DNA of 63,004 nucleotides, the filler included, from Dugesia japonica (lineage: Eukaryota), in assembly GCA_001938525.1 (NCBI GenBank). It is 5 parts of 5 records of this genome, joined end to end, with 100 filler letters (N's around TTAATTAATTAA, not from the genome) between each part and the next. Parts side by side here need not be neighbours in the genome. Positions count along the whole stretch, not along the records: positions 1 to 14,782 come from MQRL01587507.1; 4 more parts are not named here. The stretch is one strand, 5' to 3'. Under the pieces are notes generated by a model that was not told the origin of the DNA, did no database searches, and saw only the letters and a list, made by a program, of their open reading frames with translations. Below, one piece after another: positions 1 through 48,066 of the stretch (position 1 is its first letter; each line of letters opens with the position of its first letter). Made by a program: the position numbers and the translations under genes.

Positions 1-181
1 TTTATTAATATTAAATTCATTAATCTTACAAGAGATAATTCGTGGTAAGCCACAGAATTACTACAAATATGAAATGAATTTTTCAAGAAGACTATAATTT
101 GTACTTTCCAGGTAATATTATTTTTTTGATTACTTTTATTATTATTTTGATTTGGTAACCTGTTAAAGTTTAGAAATGTAC

Positions 182-646
182 CTATAGTATGCTCATGACT
201 GAAATAAGTTTGGATGATAAATCCATGCTGAATGAATTGTTTTCGAGAATCAACAAACTAATAGATACATCATCCATCAGCTTAAAGGAAGAGATCACCT
301 ATGACAATTCGAGTAAATTATTGATTAAAGCTGTAATACTCGGATAAAGTGATTGGAAAACAAAGTGGCTCCGATATGAAAAGTTAAAAGTATTAAAAAG
401 ATAGAATAGATTTGATATTTTAATAAATATTTTAATTTGAGCATGTCTTTTAGTTATTATTGATTTACTTATTACAGTTGTCTTATTCATCATGTTCTGA
501 AAATCCATCATCATCACTAAAATCTGTATCTTTGCATGCAATAGTGTAACTCATATTTATCAATTTGATTTCTATAGTATGCTCATGACTGAAATAAGTT
601 TGGATGATAAATCAAGGCTGAATGAATTGTTTTCGAGAATCAACAA
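182..646 (+). repeat. ~75-bp direct repeat pair (182-256 and 572-646)
   Basis: ctatagtatgctcatgactgaaataagtttggatgataaatc..gctgaatgaattgttttcgagaatcaacaa occurs twice with 2 mismatches. Confidence 0.85.
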
Positions 647-744
647 TGTACATTTCTATCATACAAATATGTATAAATCATCTTTGTTCACGTTTTGAAA
701 TGTGCATCCTTCATGCATGTATTGATCATGTCTTCTGCATTGAT

Positions 745-1205
745 TTAGTTTTTCATAATTAAATAATTCAAATCAGAAATCAGACCATTGACTTGAGGTT
801 GATAATCTAATGTTTTGATTCCCACAAAGACTACTTTTCTAGATGAAAATACATTTACACAGATTGGATTGAATTTTGTGTACCCCAGGAAATAATTCAG
901 GTTCAAACATGCATGTAGTTTTTCTTGCAAAATTATATAAATTGATTGAATATTCTAAATTGATAACAATTGTAAGTGACTTAAGTTGAATATTTTTTAT
1001 ATCATATTGTAAATGTTTTCTGTTTCTTACGGTTTCTTATTTAACGGTTTCTTACATCCCATAAGTATACACCTTCCGGATTTGAAGATTACTAAAGTAT
1101 ATTTTTCCGTTTTGTCGACAACTTGTGATGGTCCGCCAACTGGAAAATTCATTTTTTTGTAACCTCTTGTGAAACTCTGCCTCTGTAATTAATATTTGCA
1201 ATCAT
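745..1205 (-). pseudogene. Compact TBP-like (TATA-binding protein fold) gene of Polinton copy 1, frameshifted
   Basis: Manual translation across frameshifts: MIANINYRGRVSQEVTKKMNFPVGGPSQVVDKTEKYTLVIFKSGRCILMGCKKPL / KHLQYDIKNIQLKSLTIVINLEYSINLYNFARKTTCMFEPELFPG / TKFNPICVNVFSSRKVVFVGIK. This matches TBP repeat motifs IFxSGKxVxTGAK (twice) and YEPELFPG. Confidence 0.82.
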
Positions 1206-1264
1206 AATTATGTCAATAAAATTTTTAAAAGTGAATATATACATATACATAAACAATAATTTAA

Positions 1265-1876
1265 TTGATACATTACAACAACAATAATAGAATAAGAAAT
1301 TATGCTCTTTACCAAATTGTAGGTCTAAGCGGAAGTAAGAAAACTCTATTTGTGTTTAAATTATTGAAATCAAAATTCAATAAAATATATTGGCATAGAA
1401 AAGCTGATGAAGAACATGAATTAACTCAATCCGAATTCTGTGATATAAAAATGAAAATTATAAACGGTTTTGCCGAGAATTGGAGCAAGAGATTGACTAA
1501 AGGTAATGTGGTTAATGTTGATTATTTTTACCAGAAAGCAAACAAGGAAAATGATGTTAACCATTTATTCACCAAGGTATCAAAACATTGTAATGTGACT
1601 GTAATATTTATTACTCAGAATCTATTCTATCAAGAAAGTGGACATAGAACTCGTAATTTAAATGTACAATACATGATTTTATTTAAAAACCCAAAGGATT
1701 TGCTGATTTTCTTGCAAGATAAGCATATCCAAACAATAGATAATTTATTCTGGATTCACTCAAAGATGCAACAGTAAATCCGCATGGATATCTTTTTATA
1801 GACTTTACACAACAGATGAACTTAGAGTAATAACTGATATTTTCAATCCAAACGGTGTTACCGTATATAAACAATA
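1265..1876 (+). pseudogene. Polinton A32/FtsK-like DNA-packaging ATPase
   Basis: Degenerate Walker A (IVGLSGSKKT) and Walker B region, LFTKVSKHCNVTVIFITQNLF, LNVQYMILFKNPKD; after a frameshift FLARQAYPN..PHGYLFIDF. Confidence 0.92.
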
Positions 1877-1902
1877 AACGTAATTTCTTATTTCCTTTAC
1901 AA

Positions 1903-2495
1903 ATGGCGAAATTTACTAAAGTGATAGTTGATCAACTCAAGAATAAAATGATTAAACAAGATAAAAATCCAAAAGATTTCAAAACAAATAAAGAAAACAA
2001 CAAAGAAGTCGACAAAGATTGTTTTTAAAAAGAAGTCAACAGAGAAAAAACAATCAAAGAAGCAGTTGAACAAGTTCAAAACACTAACAAATAGCTTTGG
2101 AAAAAAACTATCAAATGTAAATAAAAAATGGATAAAGTTACAAACAAATAACTTACTGTGATATTTAATAAAATTATGAAATTTCAACAAAGTCTTCCGT
2201 ATTTTAATAAATAACTCAAGACTCCAAAAAAGTCTAGAGCAAAAATGTTGCAATTATTTCCATCATTTGTTGTTGACGATTTACTAGAGATTATTGCAAA
2301 CATAGTTCGTGGTAATTTAATTATAAGCAAAGTTAGAAACCAAGCATTGGAAAAACATTAAAAATCATTGGTTACACTTGTGCATAACAAGAATAAGAAA
2401 TTAATGAAGAAAATATTATACAAACAACATGATAGCTTATTGCTGCATTTCTACCTATTGTATTGTCTGCCTTAGGTCTAACAAATTTTGCATAA
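1903..2495 (+). pseudogene. Lys-rich basic Polinton protein with hydrophobic C-terminal peptide
   Basis: K-rich N-terminus, then MLQLFPSFVVDDLLEIIANIVRGNL...KKILYKQH / IAAFLPIVLSALG. Resembles the conserved small Polinton protein (NILKGN...QxGGFL..LLP). A homolog lies at 9500-9930 (-). Confidence 0.6.
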
Positions 2496-2521
2496 ACAAT
2501 ATATCAAATTTGATATAAGCA

Positions 2522-3190
2522 ATGGGAAATTTAGAAGCATTACCTAGAATTAATCCAAGATTTGCATCATATTTTTGTAATTCACAAAATCGAGATGATA
2601 TGAACAGATCCGAAAAATCCACCAGAATTCAAAGGAGTGGAAAAACTATGAAAAACATTACAAAATTCGAAGGACAAGACACAAAGTGGCTATCGGGTCA
2701 ACTAGCGCATGGTCTAAACCAACCAATGTTGAAAAGATTTCCAACAAGTCTCTATAAAANNNNNNNNNNNNNNNNNNNNNNNNNNNNNNNNNNNNNNNNN
2801 NNNNNNNNNNNNNNNNNNNNTAATAAAGGATACAAGTTCATTTTAACATGTATCGATTTGTTTAGAAGATTTGCGAGAGCTGTTCCGGTGAAGTCAAAAT
2901 CTAAAAATTAAATGGAAGCTGCAATCAAGTTAATGTTTGAGGATGGACATCAAGATAATTTACAAACTGACCTGGGAAAGGAATTTTACAACTCTAAAGT
3001 CAAGATTATTATTTCACATCTAAAGATTAACCACTATTCAGTATATTCGCAATCCAAAGCGGCATATGTTGAAACATTTAATCAAACAGTGAGAGATGCG
3101 TTAAAAAAGTACTTTGTGTATACTGTAAATAAAACATGGATACATATGTTACCGAAAAACATTTCACATTTATAATCATACAGATCATAA
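2522..3190 (+). pseudogene. Polinton retroviral-type (rve) integrase
   Basis: NKGYKFILTCIDLF (first D), LQTDLGKEFYN (second D), INHYSVYSQSKAAYVETFNQT (E); in-frame stop at 2909-2911 and an N gap. Confidence 0.93.
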
Positions 3191-3260
3191 TGGATTAAAT
3201 TTAAAAACCTTGAAGATGCAAAATGATTTGGATTTGAAAATTTAAATAACGACATTAAAA

Positions 3261-3560
3261 TTGCAAACACATTTATTTCTTTCAGACGTTATAAACGATG
3301 ATTCAATAGAATCCATAAAAATAAAGTTATTTTGTTCAATAGAAACTGTCAATGTCATTCAGTTTAAAGATGATTTGTACATACTGGAAATGAAGCAGTT
3401 GAATAATTATTTTGCAGAAAATTGTTTTAATATATTTAAAACTCTTTATCTAAACAAGGATGAACCATTTAGATTTTCGATGCTATATAATGTTATAAGT
3501 GTAATATTTGATGGAATCCTAACAAAAACACTTGGATTAATCAAACAAAAGTATTCCTGA
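3261..3560 (+). pseudogene. Possible Polinton minor capsid (penton) fragment
   Basis: Position between integrase and capsid genes; beta-rich open frame ending VIFDGILTKTLGL. Weak motif support only. Confidence 0.3.
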
Positions 3561-3579
3561 AGTGATATAATTGCAACTC

Positions 3580-3850
3580 AATGAGCTATTGAATTCACTG
3601 TACCTAATAAACCGAAATTGTTGAACTAGTATAGTACTAGTCAAGCCGGGAAGAATTACCACATTTTGTTGGAAAACAGTATTGCTCCGGAAAGTTGCAA
3701 ACACGTGGTCGATTTGTTTTGCTTATTCTTAGATGTATTGGAGCTATTGATATGAAAACAGCTCAGATGTAATGTCAAATAATTCAAAACTTTTGCCATC
3801 ATTAAAAGCAAATGCAATGTCTGAATTCACCAATTTTGTAGATTCTGAAG
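3580..3850 (+). pseudogene. Polinton core/pVII-like small protein
   Basis: Across frameshifts: YSTSQAG/EELPHFVGKQYCSGKLQTRGRFVLLILRCIGAIDMKTAQ/VMSNNSKLLPSLKANA. Resembles the Polinton YxxQxGxGLPxF.G..QxGxG..L.R.A.P.L protein. A basic tail probably resumes at ~4460-4550. Confidence 0.6.
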
Positions 3851-4450
3851 AACTTTCAAAAATGATGCCTGTAATTGTGTTTTTAAGCGGATTGAAATTT
3901 TTGTTCTTTGATTGGAACATATTTTTTTAAAATCTTTTATTTAAAAATTGAAGTCACACATTAATCAAGAAATCCTTGTAAATCAAATTAAAGTTTTGGT
4001 AAAAAAAATTATGTGTATTTAAATATTATTTAAATGTATTTAAATATTTTAATAGAAATGATTGTTTATTTAAAAATTTAGGATACAAATATCTTAAAAG
4101 AAATGATTATTTATTTACAAATTTAGAAAATTAATATTTAATAAAAATCGTTGTTTATTTAAAAAGTTAGGAAATTAAAAATTAAATATTTTAATAGCGA
4201 ATGGTTGTTTAATTTAAAAATTTAAGAAATTAAGAAAAATATTTTAATAGCGAATGGTTGTATATTTTAAATTTTAAGAAATAAATATTAAATTTTTTGG
4301 TAAATAATTTCTTATTGAAGCATTGGTTTTAATTTGTTTGAATAAACAAATAGTGATGTTATAGTTTTTATTTAAATAAATTTTATGGAGTTGAATTTTG
4401 ATGTTGATAATCCAATGAGTACTCAAAACTCATCTAACAATACCAAAAAA
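3850..4450 (+). mobile_element. Gypsy 5'-leader fragment inserted in Polinton copy 1
   Basis: 4335-4440 (aataaacaaatagtg..ggagttgaattttgatgttgataatcc..aaaactcatctaaca) matches the reverse complement of 42350-42455, just upstream of the Gypsy gag. It is preceded by ~50-bp degenerate tandem repeats at 4040-4290. Confidence 0.65.
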
Positions 4451-4551
4451 ANNNNNNNAAATCATAAATGTGCTGGAGTTAAACGTAAGAAATCAACAAT
4501 ATCAGGTATAAACAAACGAATGAAAGGCTATGAAACTAGTTTTGAAAAATT

Positions 4552-5760
4552 ATTTGTGGAAAAACTGAACTATGCATTTTTGATCGTCTGTCTCCACAAG
4601 GTAGAGATGAATATGGATCATTTGGAGATGTGTTACCAATGTATTCAATTTCAGAAATGAGAAATGATGTAGAGTTTTTTATAAATGGATCACAAACTGA
4701 TTAACTGGATTTAAATTATACTTTGTTGTATGTACAAGAAAAAGGTGTCGATAAAGTTGGAAAAAACTTTGGTGAAAAGTCTGATGCAGTACCAAGCAGC
4801 TTTATGTTTCATACACTATTGAAAGATATTATCCTTTCATTCAACAATATCAAAATCGAAGGTGGTAACAAAACTCATATTTAAAAGGCTACGATTGAAA
4901 CTGTTTTGAATTATAACGGAGATAGTAAGAACACTTGTATTGCAGCGATTAGTTGTGGGGATAAAGAAGACATACAAAAGTCAATTAAATTATCAAATTA
5001 AATTATTATCAATTAAATTATTGTCACTGTGTAGTTCTTTGTAACTAGATCTCATGGATAAACCAAAATATCTTATTCCTGGTGTCAATGTTCACATTCG
5101 AATGAAAAGAGCAGCCAATAGAATGAGTTTTGAAACGTCAACTGAGAAACTTAAATTTTTATTGCTTGATAAAAATTTAATGGTTAGAAGAGTTTGAGTT
5201 GAATCATCAGTACTAACAGGTCATCAAATTGGATTAAAGAAAAAAATGCAGTATATCCAATAAGAACTAAGGAAATTTTGGCTTATGCAATCAGCAAAGA
5301 TAGTACAACGTTTTATAAGAAGCAAATCTTTGGAGATCGTCGATTGCTCAACGTTTTGCTGGTAGCATTTCAAAGTAGAAATCAATATAATGGTCACTTA
5401 AAAACATCAAGCTTAAATGTCATTCATTTCAAGTCAAATCTATAAATCTATCTAAAAACAGTGATTATCAAGAATCATATACTCAAAACTTCAAAGATGA
5501 TAATTATAGCATATTATACATGCAATCAATAGTTCGAACAATGGGATATCTGAACTAGAATATGAATAGTGGAAAAACACTTCAGGAGTTTTTCAATGAA
5601 TATTCATTCTTTAACTTTGAATTTGCTCTGAATTTTGATATTAATCAGAGTCAATTGCCTCAACAAGGGAATATGAAATTGGATATTTTAAAATGAAATC
5701 CAAATTACATCAAACACAGCTATACTTATGTAAAAAATCTCAATATCATAAAATAGTTAT
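4552..5760 (+). pseudogene. Polinton major capsid protein (double jelly-roll, PY/hexon-like)
   Basis: Not in the ORF track. Manual translation: KTELCIFD..DVEFFINGSQTD*LDLNYTLLYVQ..FHTLLKDI..KATIETVLNY..KYLIPGVNVHIRMKR..LMVRRV*V..GHQIGL../AVYPI..QYNG..QGNMKLDI. Confidence 0.9.
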
Positions 5761-5814
5761 CCGTAAGTAAGTAAGATTTGAATATTTCTTTGATATTACT
5801 TTAATAGTTCNATT

Positions 5815-6140
5815 CAGATAAATCAAATTGCTACAAAATAGCTTGNATCAGAGTTTCTAGGTGTGTATCCATTGGACAAGTTTCCATTTATTGCAGTCAA
5901 TAAAGCCATAATCGTCAATAATTTACCATCAAATCTTGGTGGAGAACATTGGTTAGCAGTGTACAATGAACCAGAAAATATACTGATATACGATCCATTT
6001 GGATTTTATTACCCACCAATATTGATCTCTCATCTGTCAAGATTCTCAAAACCAATTTTGTACAACAGAATTCAGTATCAACAATAGTTAACAACAACGT
6101 GTGGACAGCATTGCTAATTAAGGTTGAAATTTCAAAATTG
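5815..6140 (+). pseudogene. Polinton adenain-like cysteine protease, copy 1
   Basis: FLGVYPLD..IIVNNLPSNLGGEHWLAV..YDPFG..YNRIQYQ..TCGQHC (His/Asp/Gln/Cys catalytic pattern). Confidence 0.92.
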
Positions 6141-6358
6141 TAATGTGTGATTAGATTAAATAAATTTCAAAATAAACCATTTTTAAATAAATGTATTTTT
6201 AAAAATGTGTTTGTTATTTACTTTGTTATTTATTGGTGGATTTTGTTGTTTTATGTCTTCATGAGTAATATAAATGTTATAATTACAATTATTGTGAGAA
6301 TAATTGTTGGACTTAACCATTGGTCACATTTGAGATTTCATTAAAATATGTTCCATGT

Positions 6359-6465
6359 AATATTGATGTTCCCCAATAATATTAACATTAAATATTAATC
6401 TGCCATGGCAATATTAACATTAAATATTTATATGCCCCAGCAATATTAACAATAAATATTAAATT
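6359..6465 (+). repeat. 32-bp minisatellite (~3.5 units)
   Basis: aatattaacattaaatattaatctgccatggc / aatattaacattaaatatttatatgccccagc / aatattaacaataaatattaaa. Confidence 0.75.
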
Positions 6466-6956
6466 AATTTTAAAATTTTTTGATATAATTTCGAATTAAA
6501 ATAATAATAATAATAATACATGCAATAATAACATAATAATAAATAAAATAACAACAGAAAAAATTACAAATATTTTATAAACAAAATTTTCGTTACGTTG
6601 CAGTTTTTATTAATACATTAAATACCTGTGGTTTTATTTTAAAATATTTTTCTCATAAGGAAAATATGAATTCAACACTAGAAAATTATACACAAACAAA
6701 AGAACAATGCATTGTAAATTTATGTAGGATACACGGAGTCATGATAGTTTTGATTATGAATATTACAACTAACTGACTCAATGCCATCGAATAAGACGAG
6801 AGCAAAAGCAACGAATTGCTGATGGATTAAGTCAAAAAAACTTCAAAAATGTACATTTTTATAAATAAATGTTGTTAATTTGTATTATGTTCTCTTTTTA
6901 TTCTTAATATTTTAAGTTTTATTAAATAACCAAGATTTTATTTTCAATAAAAATAA

Positions 6957-7262
6957 TTAATTTTGTTTTTTCAACCATAATAAACAGTGTTGTTCACATG
7001 TTTTAAATGGATTTTGATATTGAACTCTATTGTATACTATAGGTTTCAAGGATTTCGATAAGTGAGACACCAACATTGACGGATAATAAAATGCTAGTAG
7101 ATCAAATAATAGTATGTTTTCAGGTTTATTGTAAACAGCGATCCGATGTTCTCCGCCTAGATTTGATAAATGAGTATTGAAAATTAAGGCTTTATTTACT
7201 GGAATATAACTTGGAAGTTTTTTAACGCCGTATTTCCCAACCTTTTTCTTGCAATGCTCCAC
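6957..7262 (-). pseudogene. Polinton adenain-like protease, copy 2
   Basis: NKALIFNTHLSNLGGEHRIAVYNKPENILLFD..YNRVQYQNPFKTCEQHC; clearly paralogous to 5815-6140 but inverted. Confidence 0.9.
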
Positions 7263-7689
7263 CTCATTAAACGTTAAGGAGATTTTTCCAAGCTTTTAAA
7301 AGAATTAAGTGATATTAAATCAAATATATTTTTAAAAAAACGATACTTTTATAGCAATTTAACTGAAACACTGACTTCAAATTAAAACTAACGAAACGAT
7401 GAAGAGACAGATAAATGTGAAAATTGCAAATTAAAATTATTTGAATGCATCACAGCCACCTTATAATATCATTTCATTGATCTTATAAGCAGAGTCATTC
7501 GTTAAGAGATACGTAGTAAAAATGACGAGAAATATTGAAATAGTGGCCAAATGTTATTTGCACTCCATACTGGATATTTACTTAACTTGAAAGATGATTT
7601 AGAGTTGCCATATGATTAAATTTGGATTCTTTAAAAATTCATTTTTTCAATTGTCACCCTGATCAATAGAATTGCTCTCCTGTGAGGCA

Positions 7690-8885
7690 AGTATTGCGAT
7701 AAAGATCCAAAACATGGGGTGTGAAGGCCTACTGGATACCTGGGCAAGAATTATTGTGATGGGTATGGATGCGTTTAACAAGTTCAGGGATATCCCGTTA
7801 CTAACAACCAAGGACAGACTACGGTGCGCTAACTACAGTTCATTAAGTACCTGAGGAAGACTTGAGGGGGAAGTGAGGATCGGCCATACGACTAGATGAA
7901 TTAATTTCATAGTTGTGGAAAAGGTAACTCCTACCATAATTAGTGGCATTGAGTTGCAGACAAGGTTTGGATTAGAACTATATTGCATAGAAACAGCAGA
8001 AAAATATAATCAAGATCAGATTTTCAATATAGAGCTGCATTTTAGAATGATTATTACAAATGAAGAAAGATGTCAAAAAGCTTTGAGTGAGATAAATACA
8101 TTGGAAAATGGCACGATCAAGGAGTTAATAAGAAATCATTCAAATATCGTTATGGTAGATAAATGGGACATATGATGCACAAAACTGGTGAAGCATAAAA
8201 TAGTAACAAAAGGAGGACCTATAAATGTTAAGCCATGGAGAACACCCATGAACCTAGAGGATAAGTTAAACGAAAGAGTACGTAATCATTTTGAAAATGG
8301 AATTATACGAAAGTGCAATTCAACATGGAACACTCCGTTGATATGTATCTGGAAAAAAGAAAAGAAAGACATTCGTCTCTGTCTCGATTTTTGACAGCTG
8401 AATGCTATTAAGGAAAGACAAGTATTTCCAATGCCAAATGTAGAAGAGGTTCTGGATACATTAAGCGGGTCCAAATTTTTCAGCTCATTAGATTTAGGTA
8501 ATGCTTACTATCAAGTTGAGCTTGAAGAGGAGTCAAAAGATAAAACTGCCTTTTCAACAAAGTCAGGTCAATACTGTTTCAAAGGAATGCCATTTAGCAT
8601 AGCTGCAGAGCCTGGGACATTCCAGAACCTCATGAAAAAGGTTTTAGGTACAACAAAGGGAGCAACGGTGTATTTAAATGATATTCTAATATATTCAGAA
8701 AACTTGGAAAACTATTAAAAAACACTGGATTTTGTAAAATACATCAAGCAGGACTACGTTTAAGTCCGTCAAAATGTTAATTGCTAAGAAAAGAAATCAA
8801 ATTTTTGGGACACATCACAAGTGATAAAGGAGTTTAGACCGATGCAAAATGGTTGCAATACAGACATACCGTAAGGCCAAAATGC
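7690..8885 (+). mobile_element. Ty3/Gypsy pol fragment (protease + reverse transcriptase), decayed
   Basis: LLDTWA (DTG-like), WNTPLICIWKKEKKDIRLCLDF, FSSLDLGNAYYQV, KTAFST, MPF, VYLND(D)ILIYS, IKFLGH. Confidence 0.92.
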
Positions 8886-8889
8886 GTAT

Positions 8890-9500
8890 GTACTCAATTA
8901 TATCGGTTTCTTGATCTTTCTGCAGTAATAAATTTTTCACTTGTTCTTTTCGCTTACAAATTTGTGTAGAACTCTTCTGATCTATGTCCACCATTACCGC
9001 ATCGTTTACACCTCACTTCTTGATATAATCTTCTAATATGGCCAACCTTTCCACAACCAAAACATTTTGTTCGTTTTTCATTTGGACAATCTCGATTTAT
9101 ATGTCCTGTTTTATAACAAGTCCAGCACTCTACCACTTTATTTGTCGGACAATTTACTTTAGTATGACCGATCTTTTGACATGACCAAAATTCGATATTT
9201 TGTTTTTCCTTCCTTTGATCCACATGTCTATTCACTGTATGATTTACCGGTTTCTGATAATTTTACCATATGTTAATAAATATGATAAAAAATGCCATAC
9301 GTAAATGAGCCTGAAAACCTTCAACATTTTTTAACGTTTTGCATATTCTTCAAACAAATCTTCATCTAACAAACACGAGACTAATCTCTCCTGTTTTTTC
9401 ACATGGGTGATGTTTTTAGCTTCAAAATACAATTCACACCGCTATATGAATTTCTCAATATCATTTCCTCTGCAGAACACATTCGGCAATAATCTGAACA
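8890..9500 (-). mobile_element. Ty3/Gypsy gag fragment with tandem CCHC zinc knuckles
   Basis: LLPNVFCRGNDIEKFI..ELYFEAK (homologous to the gag start near 42300); knuckles CWTCYKTGHINRDC, CFGCGKVGH, CKRCGNGGH. Confidence 0.88.
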
Positions 9501-9930
9501 TTATTTATGATAATCCCAAGTAAATCACCTATAACAGGGGTGGGCAATAATTGAAGAGCCAATAATTGAATTATTTTTTTTCGAGAGCCAAACTTAAAAT
9601 TTAAGATGTGAAATAGTAAAAACGGAATACTTATTTCTATTTTAATGTTTTTATATATCCAGTAACACAAGTATACTTACCAGTTTATTGTTTATAATGA
9701 TATTTATTTTCCATTCATCATTTTCGGTTTCTTTCCATTCTTTTTTGTTTTTTATAACGTATTCACTTTTTTATTTTTATTTACACGCTGCTTTTTACAT
9801 ACATTTTACTTATGTGATTGTTTTCTCATTTTCCCATTCATTTTCTTCACAGCGGCTTCTTTCAATGTTTAACAACATCACCACTAGTTACTTGGTCAAC
9901 TAGAAATTTCTTAAATTTTGTATTATAATA
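9500..9930 (-). pseudogene. Lys-rich basic Polinton protein, copy 2 (truncated by Gypsy)
   Basis: K-rich stretch and LQLLPTPVIGDLLGIIINNV, homologous to LQLFPSFVVDDLLEIIANIV of copy 1. Confidence 0.55.
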
Positions 9931-9939
9931 CTAAAAAAA

Positions 9940-10570
9940 TTACCTATTTTATTTAGACACTGTGATTCCACTTGGACTGAATATAAATGATCTTACTTGA
10001 TAGTCTTTTGGACATCATTGTGAAAAGTCGAGAAATAAATATTCATGGGGATTTTCTGTTGCATCTTAAAATGATTACAAAAAATTGTTTTTCATTTGGG
10101 TATGCTTGTCTTGCTAGAAAATGAACAACAGTTTGATCTCTAGGATTTTTAAAAAGAATCAAGTATTGCAATTTTAAATTAAGTGTCCTATGACTAACTC
10201 TTTGATGAAATATATTTTGAGTAATGAATATCACAGTTACACTACAATGTTTTGATATCTTTGTGAATAAATTATTTAAATCCTTTTCTTTATTTACCTC
10301 CAGAAACAGATCATCAACAACAATGACATCACCTGATTTCAATTTCTTGCTTCAATTTTTATCGAATCCATTTATAATTTTCATATTACAAAATTCAGAT
10401 TGTGTCAGGCCATTCTCTTATTCTGCGCCCCTATGCTAGTATACTTTGTTAAATTTAGACTTGAATAAATTCGATTTCCATAATTTACATAGATACCAAG
10501 TTTTCAATTTGATAGACTAAATCATTTCTTAATTTCTTCATTTTGTCTTTTCTTTAATTTATTCATAATT
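9940..10570 (-). pseudogene. Polinton packaging ATPase, copy 2
   Basis: KSGDVIVVDDLF (Walker B), LFTKISKHCSVTVIFITQNIF, LQYLILFKNPRDQ, FLARQAYPN. Confidence 0.92.
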
Positions 10571-10652
10571 TAGTACATTGTTTATATTATTTTTAACGAA
10601 CCAATAAAAATAACTCCATCAAAATCCCAATGTTCCTCATTAAGTCATTAAT

Positions 10653-11106
10653 ATTATAACCAATATTAATTACAGAGACCAAGTGTCGCAAGAAATAAAA
10701 AAGAAAATCAGCTTTCCTATAGGTAAATCGTGTCAATTCAAAGTTTAAAGTTACAAGTATACAATTATATTCTTCAGAACAGAAAAATGTAAAATAATGG
10801 GGTGCAAGAAACCTTTAGAATCGCATGTTTAGAACCCCTATAATATTAAAAATATACGATTACAATCGCTAACAATTGTCGTAAATATAGGAATTTCAAA
10901 AAGAATCGTATAAATTAGCAAGAATAATCAACTTTTGGTTTGAATCAGAGTTATTTCCTGACTTAAGACTGGTAAAATATGACCCTTTCTGCGTAAATAT
11001 GTTCTAAATAGGAAAACTAGTAATACCTGGACTTAAAAATATGAATTTTGAAGGTTATTTGGATAACATTACTTCAGATTTATTTAATTTCATTGAAAAA
11101 ATTTAG
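10653..11106 (+). pseudogene. Compact TBP-like gene of Polinton copy 2
   Basis: Not in the ORF track: ITNINYRDQVSQEIKKKISFPIGKSCQFKV*SYKYTIIFFRTEKCKIMGCKKPLE..YNIKNIRLQSLTIVVNIG / YKLARIINFWFESELFPDLRLVKYDPFCVNMF*IGKLVIPGLKNMNFEGYLDNITSDLFNFIEKI*. Co-linear with 745-1205. Confidence 0.82.
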
Positions 11107-11769
11107 AAAATTCTCAACATGAAAGCAAAACTAGCACAGTTTAAATACAAAAAATATCAATTTAAATTTAGATATTTAATTTTCAAATAATTAATTTATT
11201 ACGTCGTGGTTTTTTATTGTGTTTATAAAATATATTGCATTTCATTATTATCTAGTTTCAAAATGACTAAAGAATATATTAAATTTATTTATGATGATTA
11301 TAAAGAAAAATTAATCGAAGTTATTTAAGAAGAAGACATGAAAAACGAAGAGGAATTATATCCAGATCAAAAAGCAACATTTATTTTTATTATTAATATT
11401 ATTTTATTCATGTTTTTAGTTATTCTTAAGGGGATATTTCTAGAAATATTTCGGATAGTAAAGGTGCTAGTCGAAACATGGAAATATAATTTCTGGGAAT
11501 ATATGGACTATCTACTAGAAATCGATTTTGATTCCGNAGTTGTAGCCTACGAACGACAAATCGCTTTCGCTATAATATTGGAAGAATATACCAGAAAGAA
11601 TTTAAAGCTTAAATTTGATGTAGCTTTGTATGGAAAATAAAGAAAACAACTTGTGAATGTACAAACCGAACCTCTTTTGGGCACAAATAGTGATTGGTAT
11701 AAAAATATTTTTATAAAAAAATAAATGATATCTAAATTACTTGTGTTTAATTTTTTGATATTAATAAAA

Positions 11770-12125
11770 ACGAATTTATGTAATAAAACACTTTTATAAG
11801 TTTTCAACTTCTCATCTTTCAAAACTCTTTGAATCGTGGTTGGTGGAATATTAGTTTCTTCGAATCGAAGTTTTACCATTTGTATCATCCAATGCATCTT
11901 TAATAACGGTTTTACATCCACTGGCTAAAGAAATCATCCCATGAGGTACATTGAGAACACTGCCAGTTGTCGGAAATTTCCGAATAAGTTTGGTTACTGA
12001 CGAACAGGTGCGTGGGTTTTTAATTAAATTTCTTTCCCTATTGATTTGTCTGATTGCAGTTGAAGGAGAATTTGAATTTGCATAATAACATCAAATGATG
12101 TAAATTTTCAAATCGAGATTCATAT
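11770..12125 (-). mobile_element. Tc1/IS630-like transposase N-terminal HTH fragment (DUF4817-type)
   Basis: CYYANSNSPSTAIRQ..PRTCSSVTKLIRKFPTTGSVLNVP..TSIRR / TNIPPTTIQRVLKDEKLKTYK. Confidence 0.7.
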
Positions 12126-16253: not shown

Positions 16254-19200
16254 ATGAAAATTACTCGTTATTTGTGGATTAATAATTTATCAAACAATTG
16301 TGAAGAAAATGATATACGTCAAACGTTTCAAAGGTAAATTTTATAACTAATTTAAACATGTTAAAACGAGCTTTTTGGAATATCACATTTTCTAAAATGT
16401 TAATTGTAATTTATGCAGCCATGGGAAAATTCAAACGATAAGAATTCACAAAAATAATAATTCAAGAGGTGCTATAGTTGCATTTATAGATTGTAAATCA
16501 TCAACCAAAGCTTTTGAAAGCGTTAAAACTCTAATGGATATGCCACTAAAGTTGGAATATTGTGAAGCAAATGGAGAACCTGGAATTAATTGCTTAGGAA
16601 ATAATGGAAATAATTCTGAAAATATGAAGTATAACATGTTAAATGTTTACAAGTTGAATTCTAATAATTGTCAACATTATAGAGTTATTGAAAAAAATCA
16701 TCAGAAACAAGGATTCAAAACTAGTACATCATCAAGATCTAGAAGTAATAGTAGTAATACTAGTAGTTTTGGGTCATCTATAGATGATTGTTCAAAGTAA
16801 TTATTTTATTATTTAATTCAATTGATTTGTATGTAAACTAATTTTAAACAAATGGTATCTGTTAGATACACATTTATTAAATAATCGATTTGTTATAGTT
16901 AAATCAATTTTATTATTAAATGGCAGTCAAAATTTATTAAATTGATTTTAACTATGCTAATTAATTCAAGGTATCCTGGAATTCAACAAACTAAACGTGT
17001 TGATGAAAATAGCAACAATTATGATATGAATGAAATTGATAAAAGTAAAATATCAAACAATAGTTCTGAGCCGATTGAAGCTGACAAACAATGTTTAAAT
17101 AAAGAATTATGTGGATTACTTATAGAAAATTTATCTCAACGTTCATCAGATACAAGTTTACGAGAAGGATTATTTCATGAATACAAAAAACATGGCAAAA
17201 TAACTTCAGTAACAGTGATGGGACAAGCCAGTGGACGTTATGCTATTATTTCTTTTAAACGAAGCGAAGATATGGAGAAAGCTTTTGAAGCATCTCAGGG
17301 GAAAATATTTTTTGGCAATCAAATCAAAGCAAAACAACACAATGGATTTAATTATATCGATCCAGATCTTTGTCCACCAGAACATGCGATGGATGAGTAT
17401 CATCCGAAAGCAACGAAAACTTTGTTTGTTGGAAAATTAACAACTGGATCTGTTAATGAATCCGATTTGAAGAAAACCTTCAAAAAATACGGAGAAATAA
17501 TAGTTAGCAAAAATAATTAATTTTGATGATTGAATTTTTACATATTTCGTTTTGTCACAGGATATTGATATTAAAACACAGAGTAATCAACCAGATACGT
17601 CATTTGCATTCGTGCAATATTACGACATTTCAAGTGTAGTTCGTGCATTACGCAATCAAGACAACATTAAAATCGATAACAAATCCGTTAAATTAGGATT
17701 CGGTAAAAGCCAACCAACAAATTGTTTATGGATTGGGAATTTACAACGTAACACAAATGACGCTTTTCTCAGGAGACATTTTCGGAGATATGGATCGATT
17801 ATGATCGTGATTCCTGATCCGGAATATTCATGTGCTCTCATCCAATTTGACTGTATTGAAGATGCACAACGAGCATTGACTGACACTCGAGAAAGATCGA
17901 ATGGAAACAACAATAACAATAATAATAACAATAACAACAACAATAAAAGAATGCAAGTGGATTACGCAAGCAATGAATANCAAATGGCATTTATGAATCG
18001 TTTGAGAAAATCATGCCAATTTGATACTCACGATTTCATGAAAACTTATGCCGATCCTTATCAGTAAGTTGAAATAAATTTTCAATTAGAATACCTTTTG
18101 ACTATTAATTAAATCAATCAATTAATTAAGTTTATTATTAGCTAAATTAATTCAATATTAATTAATTATAAATTTTATTAATTAATTAAATTAATTAGGA
18201 CGGAAAAAATCCAGAATTTACTAATTTCATATACGAAATATTTGGGATTATTAGAGGAAACACGACCGCAATCATTTGACAGATATGAAAACAAGAGTGA
18301 TTATGAAGAATACGATGAAACATATTCTGGTAGACAACCTCGTCATAGAAAATCTGGACATCAACGTGCATATGGAGATAATTATGGAATCGAGGATGAT
18401 TACAGTGATGATTACCGATATTCTAAATCGAATACGAGACATTATGATGATTATTCGCCAACTCATTCGCCTGTTCGTTACTCTCGTTCTAATCAGAAAT
18501 TCTCATCGGAACAATATAATTCTCGTAAATCGAATTATCGATATAATAACGATTATTATGATACGAAACATGAGCAAGTTTCCAGTTCGAATGCATATTA
18601 TCCTCATCGTCGTAGTCCGGAGCCTGGATTTATACATTCTAATCATAATCGCAGTTACAGCCCGTCACCAACATCGTCAGTGGATTATTGCGTCGATAAT
18701 TCCCGGTATAATCTCACAAGCAAGCAACGATACAGACATAATAGTAAAGATTATCGTTCTAGTCGATCAAAAGTTGTCGATAGTCACGAATCTCGTAGTT
18801 CGCGTTATGAAAGAACGTCTGAAAATCGAAGTTGGAATAAATCTAATCGATATGATTATAATGGATATATTCAATATCGTTCTAAATCTGGCAGTCGACA
18901 CTCGCGAATATCTGGAAGTATTTCTCCAAATTCTCGGCATTCTGTCAGCCAACAACGTAGTTATCGTAATGAATCTACGAAGAAAAACCGTACCCGTAAA
19001 ATCGTTAGTAATTCAACCGCTACTGATCAAATGCGTCAATCGGTACAAAAGTCTATTCCTAAACCAAATAATTCCAAATCGACTCCTTCTACATATATTA
19101 CAAAAACTAATATCAATAATAATAATCTTGACGCATCGATTGTTTCTTTAACGGATGCAGCAAAATCATCTATCAATTCTATAAACACTAACAATACAGT

Positions 19201-22200
19201 TTCTCAATCAGCTGATACTCTCTCGAAATTAGAGCGTGAACGAGCGAAATTGCTGCAAGAATTATCAATGTTAAGTGAAGACGGTGGCGGTGTCAGTGCT
19301 AGTAACAAAACTGTCAAATCATCATCATCTTCATCATCGAAACTCAATGATCTAGAAACACGTAGCGGTAGTCACAAATCTCAAAGAAAGCATGCATCAC
19401 CACCTAATATTGTCGCTAATGAGTCTAGTCAACCTGTTAAAACTGCAGTGCCAAGTGCAACCGGAAACATCATTGATTATACCAATAATAACAGTAATAT
19501 CGATTCCACTCTCCAATCACAACACTTGTTACATGAAGACAAATCGAAAATCGCAGAAGTTATTAAAATCGAAGAAAAATGTGAAACAATTCCAATTACG
19601 CCATCAATAATATTGGAAAATATTAATATCAAATCAGAATCGTATTTGACATCATCAATCGATACAACTCTACCAAAATCTGAAATTATGGATTTATATG
19701 GCATGGAATCATCTAATTTATCGAAAATCTCTCATTCTGTGATGATTTCATCAAGTTCCGATGTTGTTTCCAATGAATCTGTCAATTCTATTCAGTGTCG
19801 TGATCCCAGACTAACTTGTTCAAATTATAATATTCGTTCGTTACCATCTACATTTTGTTCTCTTTCTCCTGTCGAGCATAACTTATCGGTATCAGTTGCT
19901 ATGCCAATCACGACTACTGTCAGTTCAGCATCATTTTTCTCAGATTCTACCACCAACAATACCTCACAAACATTATCTCTCATTACTAGCAGTTACAAAG
20001 ATTCTACTAGTGATTCTGATCTTGATCATTTCAGTAATGTCGAAAATGAGGTCGATAAACGAATTCGTGAACTCGATGCAAAACTCAATCGTTCAGAGCA
20101 AAACGTTCGCACATTGGATTATAGTAAATTTCGAATCAGAAAGAAAGTTTGTGATAATATTGGAAATTGTTCGACATCTTATAACAGTAGTGGATTAATT
20201 TCATCTCCAACGTGTTTATCAGCACCAATTTCCTCTTTGTCGGTGACTTCAAGTTTANTGGATGTTGGTTATTCAAATATCAATCGTGATAACAATTCCA
20301 ATACTTCGGAATTTATCAAAACTATGCTCAATCAAACCAAACCAAAAAGCTATCATTTGTTGACAGATAGTTTGCCGACTACTGATCATTTGACGTGTAA
20401 TTATTCTGCTGTGGTGTCAACAAATTCTTTGTCTTTTAGAACTGTCGATCTTGGAGCTAATGATATTGAACGTCGAACTCTATATTCCCGATATGGATCT
20501 ATGGCTTCAAATAGTCTTCCATTATTGGATACTAAACTTAGTGTTGATACAACTCATTTGAGTCCAACAATTAACACATTCAATTCGAGATTTGTGTCGA
20601 CAACAAGCTCCATCAGTAATTCTAAAATGCCATCAACATTAACAATTTCTCCAACTGCAACAATTAGTAGCACCACTTCTACACCGACTATTCTCCATGA
20701 TTCTAATCAACCTATGAAATCAATATTGAAAAAATCCATTCCTACAACACCAGTTACTCCAAAACCCTCATCAGAACTGCCTTCTATTGGAAAATTTAAA
20801 GCCTCAATAGACTGTACAAACACTGCTGAATCAAAACCATTATCAAAAAAATCATCATCTAATTCTCTTAAACGTAAATCCCAATCCGAATCAGAAGATA
20901 GTATTGAATATTCATCAAAACCACCAAAGAAAATCAAAATTGAATCAGGTCCCGTATTAGACGATTCGTTATTCCAAACATATCCTTCAGCACCAGTTAA
21001 AAAATTCAAAAAATCGAAAAATATTTTTACAACTGCAACTTCGTCGTACGTATCAAAATACGAAGATAAAAATTCTATTGTAACGAAAAAATCTCCATCT
21101 TCTAATATGGTTTACGGCAACAATAATTCCAGTAACAGAAATAGCGTAAACAGTGAGAAAATTGGTGTGTCAAAAAAATCAGGAAAAATCAACCAATCAA
21201 ATTATTCTAATCAAAAATCAAGTAAATTGTATAAAGATAAGAAAAAATCAAGTTCTAAATTATCAATTTCTAAAAAATCGAAACCTAAAGTTACTTCAAA
21301 CAGAAAAAACAAACAAATTAAGTCGGAAAAAATTAAAAAATCTACAAAGCGATATAAAGAAAAGGAGTTTTATGACCATAACAGTAATAATGATATTAAA
21401 GAAGACGATGTTGAAGATAATAATCATGATCTTAGCGAATTCGACGATGATTTCGATAAAGATAGCGAATCCTCAGATATTGGAAATTATGAATCCATGT
21501 ATGATAAAATCAAACGTAGAAATAGTAAGAAATCCGTGTCTTCTGGTAAAAAAAGACGTAATAAACATTTAAACTCCCTTGCAAATGCAGCGAGTTCGGA
21601 TGCAATGGATAGTGAAGACAGTGAATATTGGATAAGTAAGACCAGTAAAAAATGCATCCCAGCTAAACGAAAAAGAGCTCGACTGTCTGATCTTAGTAGC
21701 AGTCATTTTTCCGATAGTAATTCTTGTAAAACTACACCTTGCGGTAAATCACAAGAGCCTCATCTATCGTCAGATTATTCCGATATTAAATCAGATATAG
21801 TTAATCAAAATAGTTTTTACAATTTGAAAGTTGCTGATGAAAATACTAAAGACGAGTCAGTAACTGATGAAAGTAAAGCTCCTGCAGAATCATTCAACCT
21901 CAGTAGTCCACATAATTCGTCTCAGTGTTCAAGTCCAAAATATGGTAAAGAAGTTAATACGGTATCGATAAATAAAGATGTTGAAACTACTAATGTGATT
22001 GCGCAATCCATGTTGACATTCCGAGCCAGGTCTTTACATCGACCTAATGAAGGTCCTCTTAAAAAACGACCAATTGCTGAACCTATCGTATTGTCAGAAG
22101 ATCTACCATATTTAGAAAAACAGGCAGATGAAGAATTTATTGCTACTAGTCCGACTAGTATAAATGAGGAACCCCCGAGTCAATTGGAATCGATGTATGA

Positions 22201-24787
22201 TATGCCTTCATCTCAACAGACCAATGTTTTGGAAGAAGTAATATTAGATGATCATCAACACGCATTGGATGTTGTTGAAGTTGAGTATGGTTTACAAGAT
22301 GTTACCAATGATTTAAATCAAATCGAGGTAGATCCTCCTTTACCCGCAGATGTAAATTCAGCTTCGCATATTCTCATGACAATGAAAACACAACCCAATA
22401 TTGATATCGAGTATGCAAATATTACAATAAATAATGAGCCTGATCAGCAAATACAATCCGTCGCGGAACATTTGATAAGTCTCGCACAAAATTCAATTGT
22501 TAGTTCTATTGGATTACCTCAATGTGAATCAGCTGTGATGGTCACCGAAGAAGAAAAGCAATCACAAATTGCATCTTCCCGTGCATGTAAAGTGAGTAAT
22601 TCAAATAGTAAACAGAAGGATTATGAAGTAACAAACTATGTGAAAAATATTATTGATAAAATTAAAAAAGAAACTGACTTAGCAAATCTATTGAATAAAG
22701 ATAAATTGGTTTGTAAACGAAGTAAGAAATCAAATCCGTCAAATATAGCCTTGAGTAAACCGATAAATCAAGAATCTAGGCCAATTTTACCATTAGATAT
22801 TGATATAAATAATCGCACATCAGTAAGCACAACTTTCCAACAAATAGACCAATCTATTGTTTCTTCAAATAGTTTAATAATGCCAATCACTCAATTACAG
22901 GAACCAGCTCATCAGGCTCCACAACAACCAGTACCACAATCACAACCACAAACACAACCACAACAAAAATGCCAATTAATCAAACCTCTTGAAACAAAGA
23001 AATCAATTCAATCAGAAGAAGCAGCAAGTACTCCATCAACTGGTCGTAGAACTCGTCATAATAGTGCAAAATCGGATAGTCAGCTGCAGTCCCTTGATGA
23101 AACCATTGATAACGTTGTAAAAAGCTCTATGAGTTCGTCTGTATCAGATGCAGTATCAAATAAATCCACTCTTGACGGAGATAATAATCCTGATGGTGAA
23201 TTATTGAAATCTAATTCCAATGAAATAAGTTCTGTAACAAAATGTGGTGATTTTTCGTCTCTGGAAGAAACGATGAATGAAGTAATTCATAAAATGAACA
23301 TTAGTTCTCCAAATGTTGTAACCAACACAGCACAGTTGGCAATGTCAGAAGTAGATGCTGTTAAAACTGTGAATAACAATGCCAAAGTATCTATTCCAAG
23401 TCAGGAAATAAGTAAACCAAAAAAACTCAATGTTAACCATGTTAAACCTCCAATGTATCAATTATCTGGTAATATGAGCGGTATCACCAATCTATTACTA
23501 GGAATTCCATCCATATTAACTGTCAATTGTCAAACAAATGCATTGGGACAGAATAAAATGCCTTCACAATTAACACTTCCTATCAGTAAATTAGCTGTTT
23601 CGACTATCCAATCAAATATCGTCTCAGCATCCACTCTAGTTCCGTCAAGTATAACACTTCACAGTCAACCGAATTCTGTAACAAGTGTTCAGTCTACTGA
23701 AGTTATGCTTACGAAATTGAATTCACTCACTCCAATAATGATTCCTGCACCATTGAGAAATCTTACACCAATTGGTCAAAATAATAATTTATCAAGTCAA
23801 TCTTTAATAGCTAGTAGACCGTTGTCAAATCCGGTTTGCGGCACTATAATGAGTGGATCAAATCCAAATACATCTGATAATTCTTCGTCCAAACTTATCA
23901 GTGTTTCCTTAACACCATCTATAAATAAGCCTATCACAAGTCCTATAAATGTAGTACCAAGGTCTCCTATCACTCCTAATCCGGGTTTAAATCTATCGAA
24001 ACTTCCCAACTCGGTAGATGTACTTAATAATTATATATTCATGCAAAGACAAGTTAATCAGGCTAAATCAAAAATGCCAAATATGTGCCAACAATCAACA
24101 TCCAATGATAATAATGTCTCCCAAAATGTTCCTGGTTTGACAGCATCTATTAGTAATACTGGTCATTCGATTATTTTATCCCAATTAACTCATGCCAACA
24201 CTGTATTATCTCCAATTAATACAGCTTATTTAACTGCTTCCGTTAATAGAACAACTAACCCAACTACAAATTTGTTGCAGTCTTTACCAACCACCAACGG
24301 TATTACTCCGGGAATTTCCAATGTTGCTCCTTCATCTGTTATACTGAGACCTATGAACATTCCACTTCCAAAATTTGAAGAGAAAGATGACTGGTTAAAA
24401 CAAAACAAACAAGTTGAATTAAACTTTCCAATACGATGGACCGGTAAATTGTGCCTTAAGAATGATGAAGTATTTGTTCAAATGCATATGATTGCTGGCA
24501 ATGAAGATTTGATAAAAAATAGCATGAACTTAATTTCTAATGGTCAAATTTTATCTCAGCCCCTAAGAATAGTTCAAAGAATGAGATTAGAACCAAATCA
24601 GTTAGAAGGTCTTCAAAGGCGATTAACTCGACCGCTTGAATTTTGTACTTGTTTGACATTAGCAGGTGGAGATAAGTCAGATGAATTAAGCCGAACCAGT
24701 TCTATCTTGAATGATAATTTCATCAAATATCTCCAGGAAAAGTCAGCAGCTGGTATTATCAATATATGCATACCAGAATCACAACAG
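16254..24787 (+). CDS. spen: Split ends / SHARP (Msx2-interacting protein) ortholog; exons 16254-16333, 16419-16796, 16971-17502, 17561-18063, 18199-24787; terminal exon not found
   Basis: RRM1 MKITRYLWINNL..AFIDCKSS (cf. SPEN MVRETRHLWVGNL); RRM2 LSQRSSDTSLREGLFHEYKKHG; DEYHPKATKTLFVG; DIDIK..KLGFGKSQPTNCLW; YESMYDKIKRR; SPOC FPIRWTGKLCLKND..LRIVQRMRLE..KYLQEKSAAGII. All introns are GT-AG with consistent phases. Confidence 0.96.
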
Positions 24788-25176
24788 GTACTTGTCAGAT
24801 TATTTNNNNNNNNNNNNNNNNNNNNNNNNNNNNNNNNNNNNNNNNNNNNNNNNNNNNNNNNNNNNNNNNNNNNNNNNNNNNNNNNNNNNNNNNNNNNNNN
24901 NNNNNNNNNNNNNNNNNNNNNNNNNNNNNNNNNNNNNNNNNNNNNNNNNNNNNNNNNNNNNNNTATTGAAATATTGAATTATTAACCAATTATAACATCA
25001 CATAATTATTTAGCTGAAATATTTGTTAAGACAATTTTTTCACAACTGTCACATCACACACACACAGGATCATTATGTTCTATTCTGAATATAATTTATT
25101 TGTTATAATCGATGTCCACAATAGGGTGCAAACTATGTAACTGCACTCCATAGATTCTTTATAAATACTAATACTA

Positions 25177-38192: not shown

Positions 38193-38292
38193 NNNNNNNN
38201 NNNNNNNNNNNNNNNNNNNNNNNNNNNNNNNNNNNNTTAATTAATTAANNNNNNNNNNNNNNNNNNNNNNNNNNNNNNNNNNNNNNNNNNNN
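38193..38292. other. Artificial contig spacer 44N-TTAATTAATTAA-44N
   Basis: Identical 100-bp spacer. Confidence 0.95.
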
Positions 38293-47405: not shown

Positions 47406-47912
47406 ATATATAAATATGTATTTTTGAACATAAATATGCCTAATTGTAATTTATTATAATTAGACCAATTTCTATATATAACCGGCTTAAACCATCATCG
47501 TTTGAAAACCAAAAACCGCCAAAATTCTTTATTTATCAACTTGTAAAATGACAAAAAACCCCACGAGGTAAATGATCATTTCGTATACTTAACACCAGTA
47601 AATGTTCATTGTCAAATCAAAGGCTCAAAATGATGGGTGCAAAGTTTATCGTTTTCAAACTATGGTGATGCAAGCTGAGGCCACCTTGTGTAAAATTTAA
47701 ATATGCAAATATATTTTTTAAAAACTGAAATTAAAACGATTTAAATTCTTAAATTTTAAATAATTTAAATAATTAAATTAGTACAATTAAATATTGTAAA
47801 ATATAATTTCTAATAAAATGAAGTTATCATTACATTTTAAAAAAATATGGATATTTATAATTACAATTATTGTGAGGATAATTGTTGAACTTAACCATTG
47901 ATCGCATTTGAG

Positions 47913-48066
47913 ATTTCATTAAAATAAGAAAAGGCTTCGATCAAAATAAAATATATTTGTAAAAGGTTCAAATTTTCGACAATAATCTTCATCTATTGTC
48001 AAAAATTTGAACATTTTAATAAATAAATTTTATTTTGATCGAAGCCTTTTCTTATTTTAATGAAAT
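47913..48066. repeat. 154-bp near-perfect palindrome (~72-bp arms)
   Basis: atttcattaaaataagaaaaggcttcgatcaaaataaaat...attttattttgatcgaagccttttcttattttaatgaaat. Confidence 0.9.

Follow-up and report, generated by a model that had tools for sequence, protein, structure and literature searches.

A short TBP-family gene borne by Polinton-type elements, with a matching putative late-gene promoter box and two decayed copies in Dugesia japonica

Cellular TATA-binding proteins (TBP; Pfam PF00352; for example, yeast 1tbp and 1ytb and Sulfolobus 1mp9) are two-repeat saddles with an EPELFP stirrup and the phenylalanines F116, F190 and F207, features that they have in common with the element-borne protein described here. 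Unlike them, the Polinton protein is only about 150 aa long, has no N-terminal tail, a short helix H1 and a largely absent helix H2 in its N-repeat, and lacks F99, while its DNA face carries the changes V122R, T124M, N159S/T, V161T/S and L205N. TRF2/TBPL1, a cellular full-length paralogue of TBP, has lost intercalating phenylalanines and serves a subset of promoters; we know of no TATA-like box that it binds.

Viruses provide further points of comparison. TBP mimics are known from beta- and gammaherpesviruses (KSHV ORF24 and relatives). According to the available text of PMC12529657, the KSHV protein ORF24 reads TATTWAA at late promoters by means of a polar TBP-like surface and works with host Pol II. 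The herpesvirus late system and the Polinton have in common a TBP-like protein with a polar DNA face and a variant TATA sequence. By contrast, ORF24 is described in the same available text as a large multidomain protein which acts within a six-protein complex and is devoid of the acidic TFIIB contacts, whereas the Polinton protein consists of little more than the saddle (∼150 aa), keeps these contacts and has YATAAACR as its candidate box. No herpesvirus vPIC-type partners were recognised among the neighbours of the TBP loci, and by analogy the Polinton TBP would at most work like the herpesvirus late system, not being a member of it. Nucleocytoviruses and poxviruses (VITF-3) encode TBP-fold stage factors serving their own RNA polymerase (PMC12917281, as far as the available text goes), and virus-encoded TBP-fold matches were seen in our structure search of BFVD. 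Here the difference lies in the polymerase, as neither an RNA polymerase nor a TFIIB gene could be identified in the Polinton TBP loci, most of which are on partial contigs.

Polintons/Mavericks, or adintoviruses (Starrett et al., 2021; PMC8502044), as described in the available part of that paper, share with the present elements the ATPase, the pX-like gene, the integrase, genes in the penton and hexon positions, the adenain and, in relatives, PolB. In the figure text of its Fig. S2 there is an SSDBP label and no TBP label; in the rest of the available text TBP appears only as an abbreviation in the legends of figures on MELD viruses, without analysis. The available main texts of PMC11161782, PMC8097293, 10.1101/2023.08.22.554363 and 10.64898/2026.06.19.733378 contain neither TBP nor TATA, and no promoter box was found in the papers searched on Polintons, Mavericks and adintoviruses, with Repbase reports and subscription journals outside the scope of the search. 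A first-pass annotation of the locus, made from the sequence alone, had been aware of no basal transcription factor described in Polintons. TBP is named in a legend of Starrett et al. (2021), the one pertinent work that the literature search returned. What we describe is a TBP variant that is conserved, widespread and carried by the elements, together with a late-gene box to match; the gene has once been labelled in print.

The whole stretch of D. japonica DNA that was analysed (63,004 nt; assembly GCA_001938525.1) is called the window below, and the features found in it are listed in Table 1.

Table 1. Features of the two decayed Polinton-type elements in the window
Feature	Position	Strand	Basis or remark
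Decayed C1-family gene, probably SSB (T7 gp2.5/ASFV CP312R type)	60-400 (limits approximate)	+	Profile match 114-275, iE 1.3e-5
Short TBP-family gene, copy 1	745-1205	-	Pseudogene, three frame changes; Pfam PF00352 and PDB TBP matches
Ordinary TATA-like element TATATATT, putative early promoter	1234-1241	-	36 nt before TBP start
CATAAACA box, putative late promoter before ATPase	1248-1255	+	Back-to-back with TBP promoter
A32-like packaging ATPase, copy 1	1280-1877	+	Broken, degenerate P-loop; tblastn 60% to cluster C2
TATAAACA box	1866-1873	+	36 nt before a small ORF whose start is at 1903
pX-like small core protein gene (cluster C4), broken	2176-2480	+	Cluster homology, profile match
CATAAACA box	2491-2498	+	30 nt before small MG...C ORF (2522) preceding the integrase
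Retroviral-type integrase fragment	2577-3181	+	54% to cluster C6, profile match
Putative penton (C7) and small basic protein (C10) fragments	3282-3778	+	Profile iE 4e-5 and 3.9e-11
TATAAACA box upstream of putative capsid C8	4507-4514	+	Sequence
Putative major capsid protein (C8), broken	4555-5687	+	Homology to cluster C8
Adenain-type maturation protease, copy 1	5836-6135	+	Pfam Peptidase_C5, E 9.1e-5, above cut-off
Protease of second, inverted element	6960-7253	-	73% nucleotide identity to copy 1
Second copy of the packaging ATPase, broken	9949-10560	-	72% nucleotide identity to copy 1
TATAAACA box upstream of ATPase copy 2	10579-10586	-	Sequence
Short TBP-family gene, copy 2	10645-11106	+	Stops and frame change; profile iE 1e-18 and 2e-14

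The first-pass annotation had reconstructed a TBP-like protein across frameshifts, and both half-repeat signatures quoted by it are indeed present on the minus strand of 745-1205. Three reading frames are used, with changes near 1150, 1030-1015 (a short local duplication) and 880. TLVIFKSGRCILMGCK lies within the piece 1030-1188, MFEPELFPG within 842-1036, and VNVFSSRKVVFVGIK within 745-954. When four raw minus-strand pieces were compared with Pfam, two matched TBP alone, below the cut-off (E 0.0016 and 0.0059), and the other two gave no match. Read with an X at its break, the C-terminal repeat scores 26.1 bits against a PF00352 cut-off of 22.9 (E 7.8e-6), which bears out the assignment of the repaired protein. 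The same repeat has 35 matches among the PDB sequences, all of them TBP or TBP-containing (best 1mp9, E 3.1e-8), and is 67% identical to an intact relative, P0008, compared with 29-34% to canonical TBPs. A homologue search with one 65-aa piece of the protein yielded none among 10 candidates. As the intact relatives start at, or a few residues from, an N-I-N-Y-type motif, we set the start of the window gene at ATG 1205 by the conserved N-terminus of the family, M-x-x-N-I-N-Y. Given this start and an ATPase profile match spanning 1289-1874, the gap between the two genes is about 75-80 bp. They are divergent, as had been claimed; the claimed spacing of ∼60 bp was too short.

Like TBP copy 1, the ATPase of this copy is broken; its intact relative matches Pfam Pox_A32 (E 3.8e-6). 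The C1-family gene at 60-400 is convergent with the TBP gene, and a part of it is duplicated at 572-646. Among the other genes, the intact relative of the pX-like gene has a weak match to Adeno_PX (E 0.017), and that of the integrase matches rve (E 1.7e-12) and, in addition, carries a chromodomain; the penton (C7) and small basic protein (C10) are named from their positions. The putative capsid protein has the size and position expected for a double jelly-roll major capsid protein, and no match to it was found in Pfam, PHROG or the PDB sequences. Of the Polinton genes named earlier, the integrase and the protease are confirmed, while the capsid label rests on homology to C8, size and position. 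The gene order of copy 1 (SSB-like C1, TBP on the minus strand, ATPase, pX-like, integrase, penton-like, C10, putative capsid, protease) matches that of the intact loci L003, L012, L044 and L045. Copy 1 runs off the window start, and no PolB gene was found in 1-12 kb; decayed PolB fragments related to the polymerase of L003 and L012 are located at 33058-34167 (+) and 54172-55320 (-). Neither terminal inverted repeats nor a target-site duplication were recognised in 1-12000, where the elements are truncated and the long inverted matches are genes of the two opposed elements. AT-rich tandem arrays are present inside copy 1 (4042-4289, units of 45-53 nt) and just after it (6354-6462, 32 nt). Two other segments are repeated in the window, 6277-6348 at 47855-47926 and 4332-4439 at 42349-42455.

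The observation turned out to be larger than first annotated, as it includes a second TBP/ATPase pair at 9949-11106, plus a promoter box. In the second element the TBP and ATPase genes are also head-to-head, the two elements being 70-73% alike at the DNA level, and most genes are broken in both. The profile match of TBP copy 2 spans 10656-11094 and that of ATPase copy 2 spans 9949-10504. This TBP is 65-67% identical to intact relatives, and its pieces taken alone have no match in Pfam. Two public runs mapped to 500-2760 at 80% likeness yielded 4177 and 4243 contigs, and the element belongs to a high-copy, diverged repeat family; dozens of the contigs cover the TBP part, and one of them spans 1157-1449 across the TBP/ATPase junction. 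None of the 818 RNA reads over 500-2760 (run X22) matched at 99% or more. They come from diverged copies and, therefore, are uninformative on the expression of the window copy.

Other mobile elements have also left remnants in the window. Between the two Polinton copies, at 7700-9300, there are fragments of LTR retrotransposons (RVT_1, zinc knuckle), more gag/pol-like fragments are found near 38-42 kb (37400-42000), and a fragment of a MULE transposase near 57 kb (57196-58043). A host gene at 16903-24985 has RRM domains, a C-terminal SPOC domain and an open stretch of 2267 codons; by domain order we take it to be Spen/SHARP-like.

The window copies are dead, and the interest rests on the TBP family. 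With an alignment of the window TBP pieces as query, 51 candidates were obtained, of which 23 are intact proteins (144-158 aa), in a search covering protein lengths of 20-158 only; an intact relative matches Pfam TBP with 63.7 bits in two stretches. In an HMM search of 50%-identity clusters, 46 clusters matched with E<=1e-30, and 455 matched with E<=1e-10, the latter including canonical TBPs (12 among the 150 matches listed). On metagenome contigs, 55 of 80 candidate TBP loci were confirmed, with GC content of 27-47% and several gene orders. This spread over contigs and clusters gives no support to the restriction to a flatworm lineage that was proposed at first. A core Polinton ORF is found beside the TBP gene in 22 of these 55 loci and in 14 of the 21 loci of 3 kb or more, so that Polinton flanks, expected from the initial observation, do accompany the homologues; the remaining loci are mostly short or have only SSB-like and DEDD-like neighbours. 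In particular, the neighbours match Pox_A32, rve with chromo, Peptidase_C5 and DNA polymerase. In L003 (PHROG, E 4.8e-20) and, by cluster homology, in L012, a single contig carries both the polymerase and TBP. The PolB proteins of L003 (9122-12391) and L012 (10209-12818) bear an endonuclease VII domain. Scans of viral contigs with the window ATPase and with TBP, ATPase and capsid alignments produced no matches, and neither did an ATPase search of a phage collection.

Fifteen related loci contain both the TBP and ATPase genes. In 13 of them the two are in tandem, in two they are divergent with intervening genes, and in none are they directly divergent. This rules out the head-to-head arrangement as a conserved trait; the order is specific to the window lineage. 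The median pairwise dN/dS of the TBP genes is 0.29 (0.12-0.49), calculated over the 109 of 1176 pairs from 49 intact ORFs that had dS of 0.1-1.5; for the ATPase it is 0.11, over 10 of 91 pairs. The TBP family is under purifying selection, in agreement with the earlier notion of an element-borne gene. A FastTree phylogeny built from 73 sequences over 148 columns groups the 41 short TBPs in a single clade (stem 0.95, support 0.78), which falls outside the clade of 23 eukaryote-type TBPs (support 1.0); the tree included 12 of the 23 near and 29 of the 87 distant members of the family, and was built without animal TBP, TRF2 or an identified viral TBP. The long stem outside the eukaryotic clade, in this tree lacking animal TBP, gives no support to the suggested capture from a host TBP. 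Four proteins (P0106, P0139, P0188 and P0206; 272-420 aa) seemingly have more than two TBP repeats and may be annotation or assembly artefacts.

Two kinds of genes are frequent companions of TBP. A DEDD-type nuclease-like ORF (C3, IDFE...ELC, labelled by eye), for which no match was found in Pfam, is usually located between the protease and TBP (L012, L026, L029, L032-L034, L036-L038, L040, L045, L046 and L049). An SSB-like superfamily (C1, C5, C9 and C13) adjoins the TBP gene in L001-L055 and in the window at 60-400. For a modelled C1-family relative, the best chains were CP312R (Z 5.4) and T7 gp2.5 (Z 4.2), both weak matches; a further weak structural match of the superfamily was to the Enc34 SSB, and it also matched the Atlas clusters DUF5871/DUF2738. 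C5 and C1 resemble two exons of one gene, with a predicted AT-rich GT-AG intron of 43-46 nt in 6 of 9 loci. Such predicted introns would fit nuclear Pol II transcription.

The AlphaFold2 model of P0008 has a mean pLDDT of 93. With Foldseek, 44 PDB matches had E<=0.001, and all those at the top of the list were TBP entries (E about 1e-9). The VIA comparison with TBP gave Z 12.6 over 146 of 151 residues with an rmsd of 2.9, the next fold being at 6.5, and the structural identity to cellular TBP is 20-27%. The TBP fold proposed for the window protein is thus recovered in its intact relative as a two-repeat saddle, and the family is a conserved, ∼150-aa version of this saddle borne by the element. 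In the first repeat, the model shows a helix of five residues and lacks the long basic second helix. The span between G125 and Q158, comprising 33 residues in yeast, has only 18-21 in all but two of the 23 near members and varies from 14 to 51 in distant ones.

The roles of the DNA-face positions are known for yeast TBP, as is the contact of E186 and E188 with TFIIB. Some of these yeast positions and the acidic TFIIB contact also find support in the available text of PMC12529657. We compared these positions, with the yeast-like TBP P0276 as a ruler (yeast + 3), across 23 near members and 105 distant ones, the latter being those left of the 150 listed after removal of the 12 canonical TBPs and of proteins shorter than 135 aa. 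F116, F190 and F207 are kept in all 23 near and in 99-104 of the 105 distant members, and P191 is kept too; F99 is lost, with K/P in that region, and so three of the four intercalating phenylalanines remain. Also retained are E186 (22/23 near, 94/105 distant) and E188 (23/23 and 103/105). By contrast, all 23 near members have arginine for V122 (99/105 distant), methionine for T124 (103/105), asparagine for L205 (104/105) and serine or threonine for N159 (104/105). V161 on the DNA face is replaced by threonine or serine, and the DNA-face changes are each seen in 97-104 of the 105 distant members. N4 would correspond to yeast N69 if the VIA register holds; MAFFT placed it elsewhere, and the N-terminal register is uncertain. 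The full pair of base-reading asparagines and the hydrophobic DNA face of a canonical TATA-binding TBP were not found. A DNA face that is invariant and yet altered suggests a new target rather than decay.

We then compared the regions upstream of genes in the related loci. ATAAAC is present 10-60 nt upstream of the ATG in 15/15 ATPase genes (12/12 distinct) as opposed to 1/43 TBP genes (1/33 distinct), with Fisher p 4.5e-10 and 3% in random windows; 43 of 54 TBP ORFs had a usable start and flank, and after removal of near-duplicates at 75% identity the loci remain related, not independent. The survey covered TBP-carrying loci only, so the box may be general to the elements. In the 12 distinct ATPases the distance from ATAAAC to the ATG is 31-36 nt in 11 and 47 nt in one. 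Within 90 nt upstream, ATAAAC is found in 42 of the 54 genes of the late-type set, and within 60 nt in 5/8 MCP, 4/7 penton, 6/9 pX, 1/6 C10 and 0/4 protease genes. The late box also precedes 3/4 C9 SSB-like genes, 6/10 C3 DEDD-type ORFs and some genes of unknown timing. An LRR gene (Pfam LRR_8, E 1e-16; signal-peptide-like start), seen in L026, L029, L031 and L043, has the late box in 4/4 cases. TBP genes have a different upstream region, with TATA[AT]A[ATG] in 18/33 and TCA[TC]T in 17/33, compared with TATA[AT]A[ATG] in 2/12 ATPase regions; C13 SSB-like genes have these motifs in 6/6 and 5/6 cases, respectively.

In ten late modules, TATAAACR occurs 46 times in the sense and never in the antisense orientation, while canonical words have no sense bias (TATAAAA 10/16, TATAAAT 11/11, TATATAA 16/18). 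An ATG is found 28-40 nt past YATAAACR 0.76 times per site (145 sites), compared with 0.19-0.36 for five control octamers. Immediately ahead of ATAAAC there is a T in 34/46 and an A in 1/46 cases, and a G follows it in 8/46. Given the rarity of A, together with the lack of a same-strand gene upstream of the window ATPase, we rejected a derivation of the box from a poly(A) signal. In the window, YATAAACR occurs between 1200 and 6200 six times in the sense and never in the antisense orientation, the background being 0.78 per 5 kb per strand; ATAAACA shows no enrichment in the window as a whole (44 vs. 37.5 +/- 6.3). Overall, the ATPase and capsid-module genes stand behind YATAAACR at a set distance from the ATG, and the TBP and SSB-like genes mostly have an ordinary TATA and TCATT upstream.

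In 8/8 integrase loci (L001, L003, L008, L012, L028, L044, L045 and L048), a conserved small ORF of ∼20-45 aa is found just before the integrase, with ATAAAC 20-47 nt upstream; it starts with MG and has a cysteine pair (CC or CAC) at its end. In the window it is located at 2522-2580. Judging by sequence, its product could be a myristoylated, acylated virion peptide.

The best reading of the window TBP gene is a dead copy of what would be a late-transcription factor of a Polinton/adintovirus-type element. We estimate at roughly 0.65 the probability that, in such elements, an early-made mini-TBP reads the YATAAACR box and recruits host Pol II to the late genes. Host TBP/TFIID would first transcribe the early genes (TBP, SSB) from ordinary TATA promoters. 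The mini-TBP of the element would then bind YATAAACR in the minor groove and recruit host TFIIB and Pol II via its conserved stirrup, while escaping host regulators that dock on the deleted helix. The outcome would be a one-protein early-to-late switch for virion genes. In the window lineage, the putative early and late promoters would be placed back-to-back between TBP and ATPase. The late-gene-specific box lends indirect support to the earlier proposal that the TBP may serve to transcribe the element's own genes.

The box could also be a weak, non-canonical TATA read by host TBP, the TBP of the element then having another task, such as to damp host transcription through competition for TFIIB or promoters of the host, or to act on early genes or those of Pol III type. 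We take the C(-25) TATA variant of PDB 1qn3 to be TATAAAC. According to the title of this entry, wild-type TBP has been crystallised on the variant; moreover, a decoy for host TFIIB would need the stirrup that the mini-TBP has kept, and the box was compared in TBP-carrying loci only. This explanation seems unlikely, as it does not account for the strict C, given unbiased canonical TATA words and a 46/0 bias of TATAAACR, and as a DNA face invariant but unlike that of host TBP fits a changed target better than lost binding. It is improbable that the mini-TBP, once bound to the box, represses transcription or bends DNA for replication or packaging instead of activating genes: the conservation of E186 and E188 and the location of the box at core-promoter distance from start codons, rather than at element ends, argue against such roles, even if the loss of one phenylalanine and of the N-repeat helix could impair assembly of the pre-initiation complex and TBP often adjoins SSB-like genes.

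Forkhead factors have the consensus RYAAAYA, which ATAAACA fits, and GTAAACA is also sense-biased in the late modules (10 vs. 1). Still, we regard as very improbable that the box is a host Forkhead site unrelated to the TBP gene, since other Forkhead-type words are unbiased (ATAAATA 12/20, GTAAATA 8/11), while the box is mostly preceded by T (34/46), can be followed by G (8/46), and has a fixed orientation and spacing. Finally, both window TBP copies are intronless and broken, as would be a processed pseudogene, or a recently captured host TBP, lodged in a Polinton. The chance of this is close to negligible, as the identity to intact element proteins is 65-67% compared with 29-34% to canonical TBPs, the arrangement is kept in two independent copies ∼70% alike, selection is purifying, and the family branches outside the eukaryotic TBP clade in the tree without animal TBP or TRF2. 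The same identity, selection and tree placement, together with the Polinton neighbours, set the homologues apart from processed host pseudogenes, and Pfam, fold, neighbours and dN/dS agree on the core of the first-pass annotation, namely that a Polinton-type element bears an intronless gene with the TBP fold.

If the early-made mini-TBP does direct host Pol II to the late genes, it would be a natural minimal TBP of altered specificity with the TFIIB contact apparently kept, useful for understanding how TBP reads DNA. A dedicated late promoter and a dedicated TBP would provide a direct handle on the expression of Polinton capsid genes and on a possible regulated virion phase; late start sites, as well as small late genes missed by annotation, can be predicted from the box, and the factor lends itself to reporter assays. 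We put at slightly better than even the odds of a broader claim, that a widespread Polinton/adintovirus class runs a temporal cascade with a single specificity-switched mini-TBP, which would act for host Pol II much as an alternative sigma factor, would have arisen independently of the six-protein herpesvirus system and would mark a programmed virion-forming phase. If true, such a phase would exist in elements long regarded as transposons.
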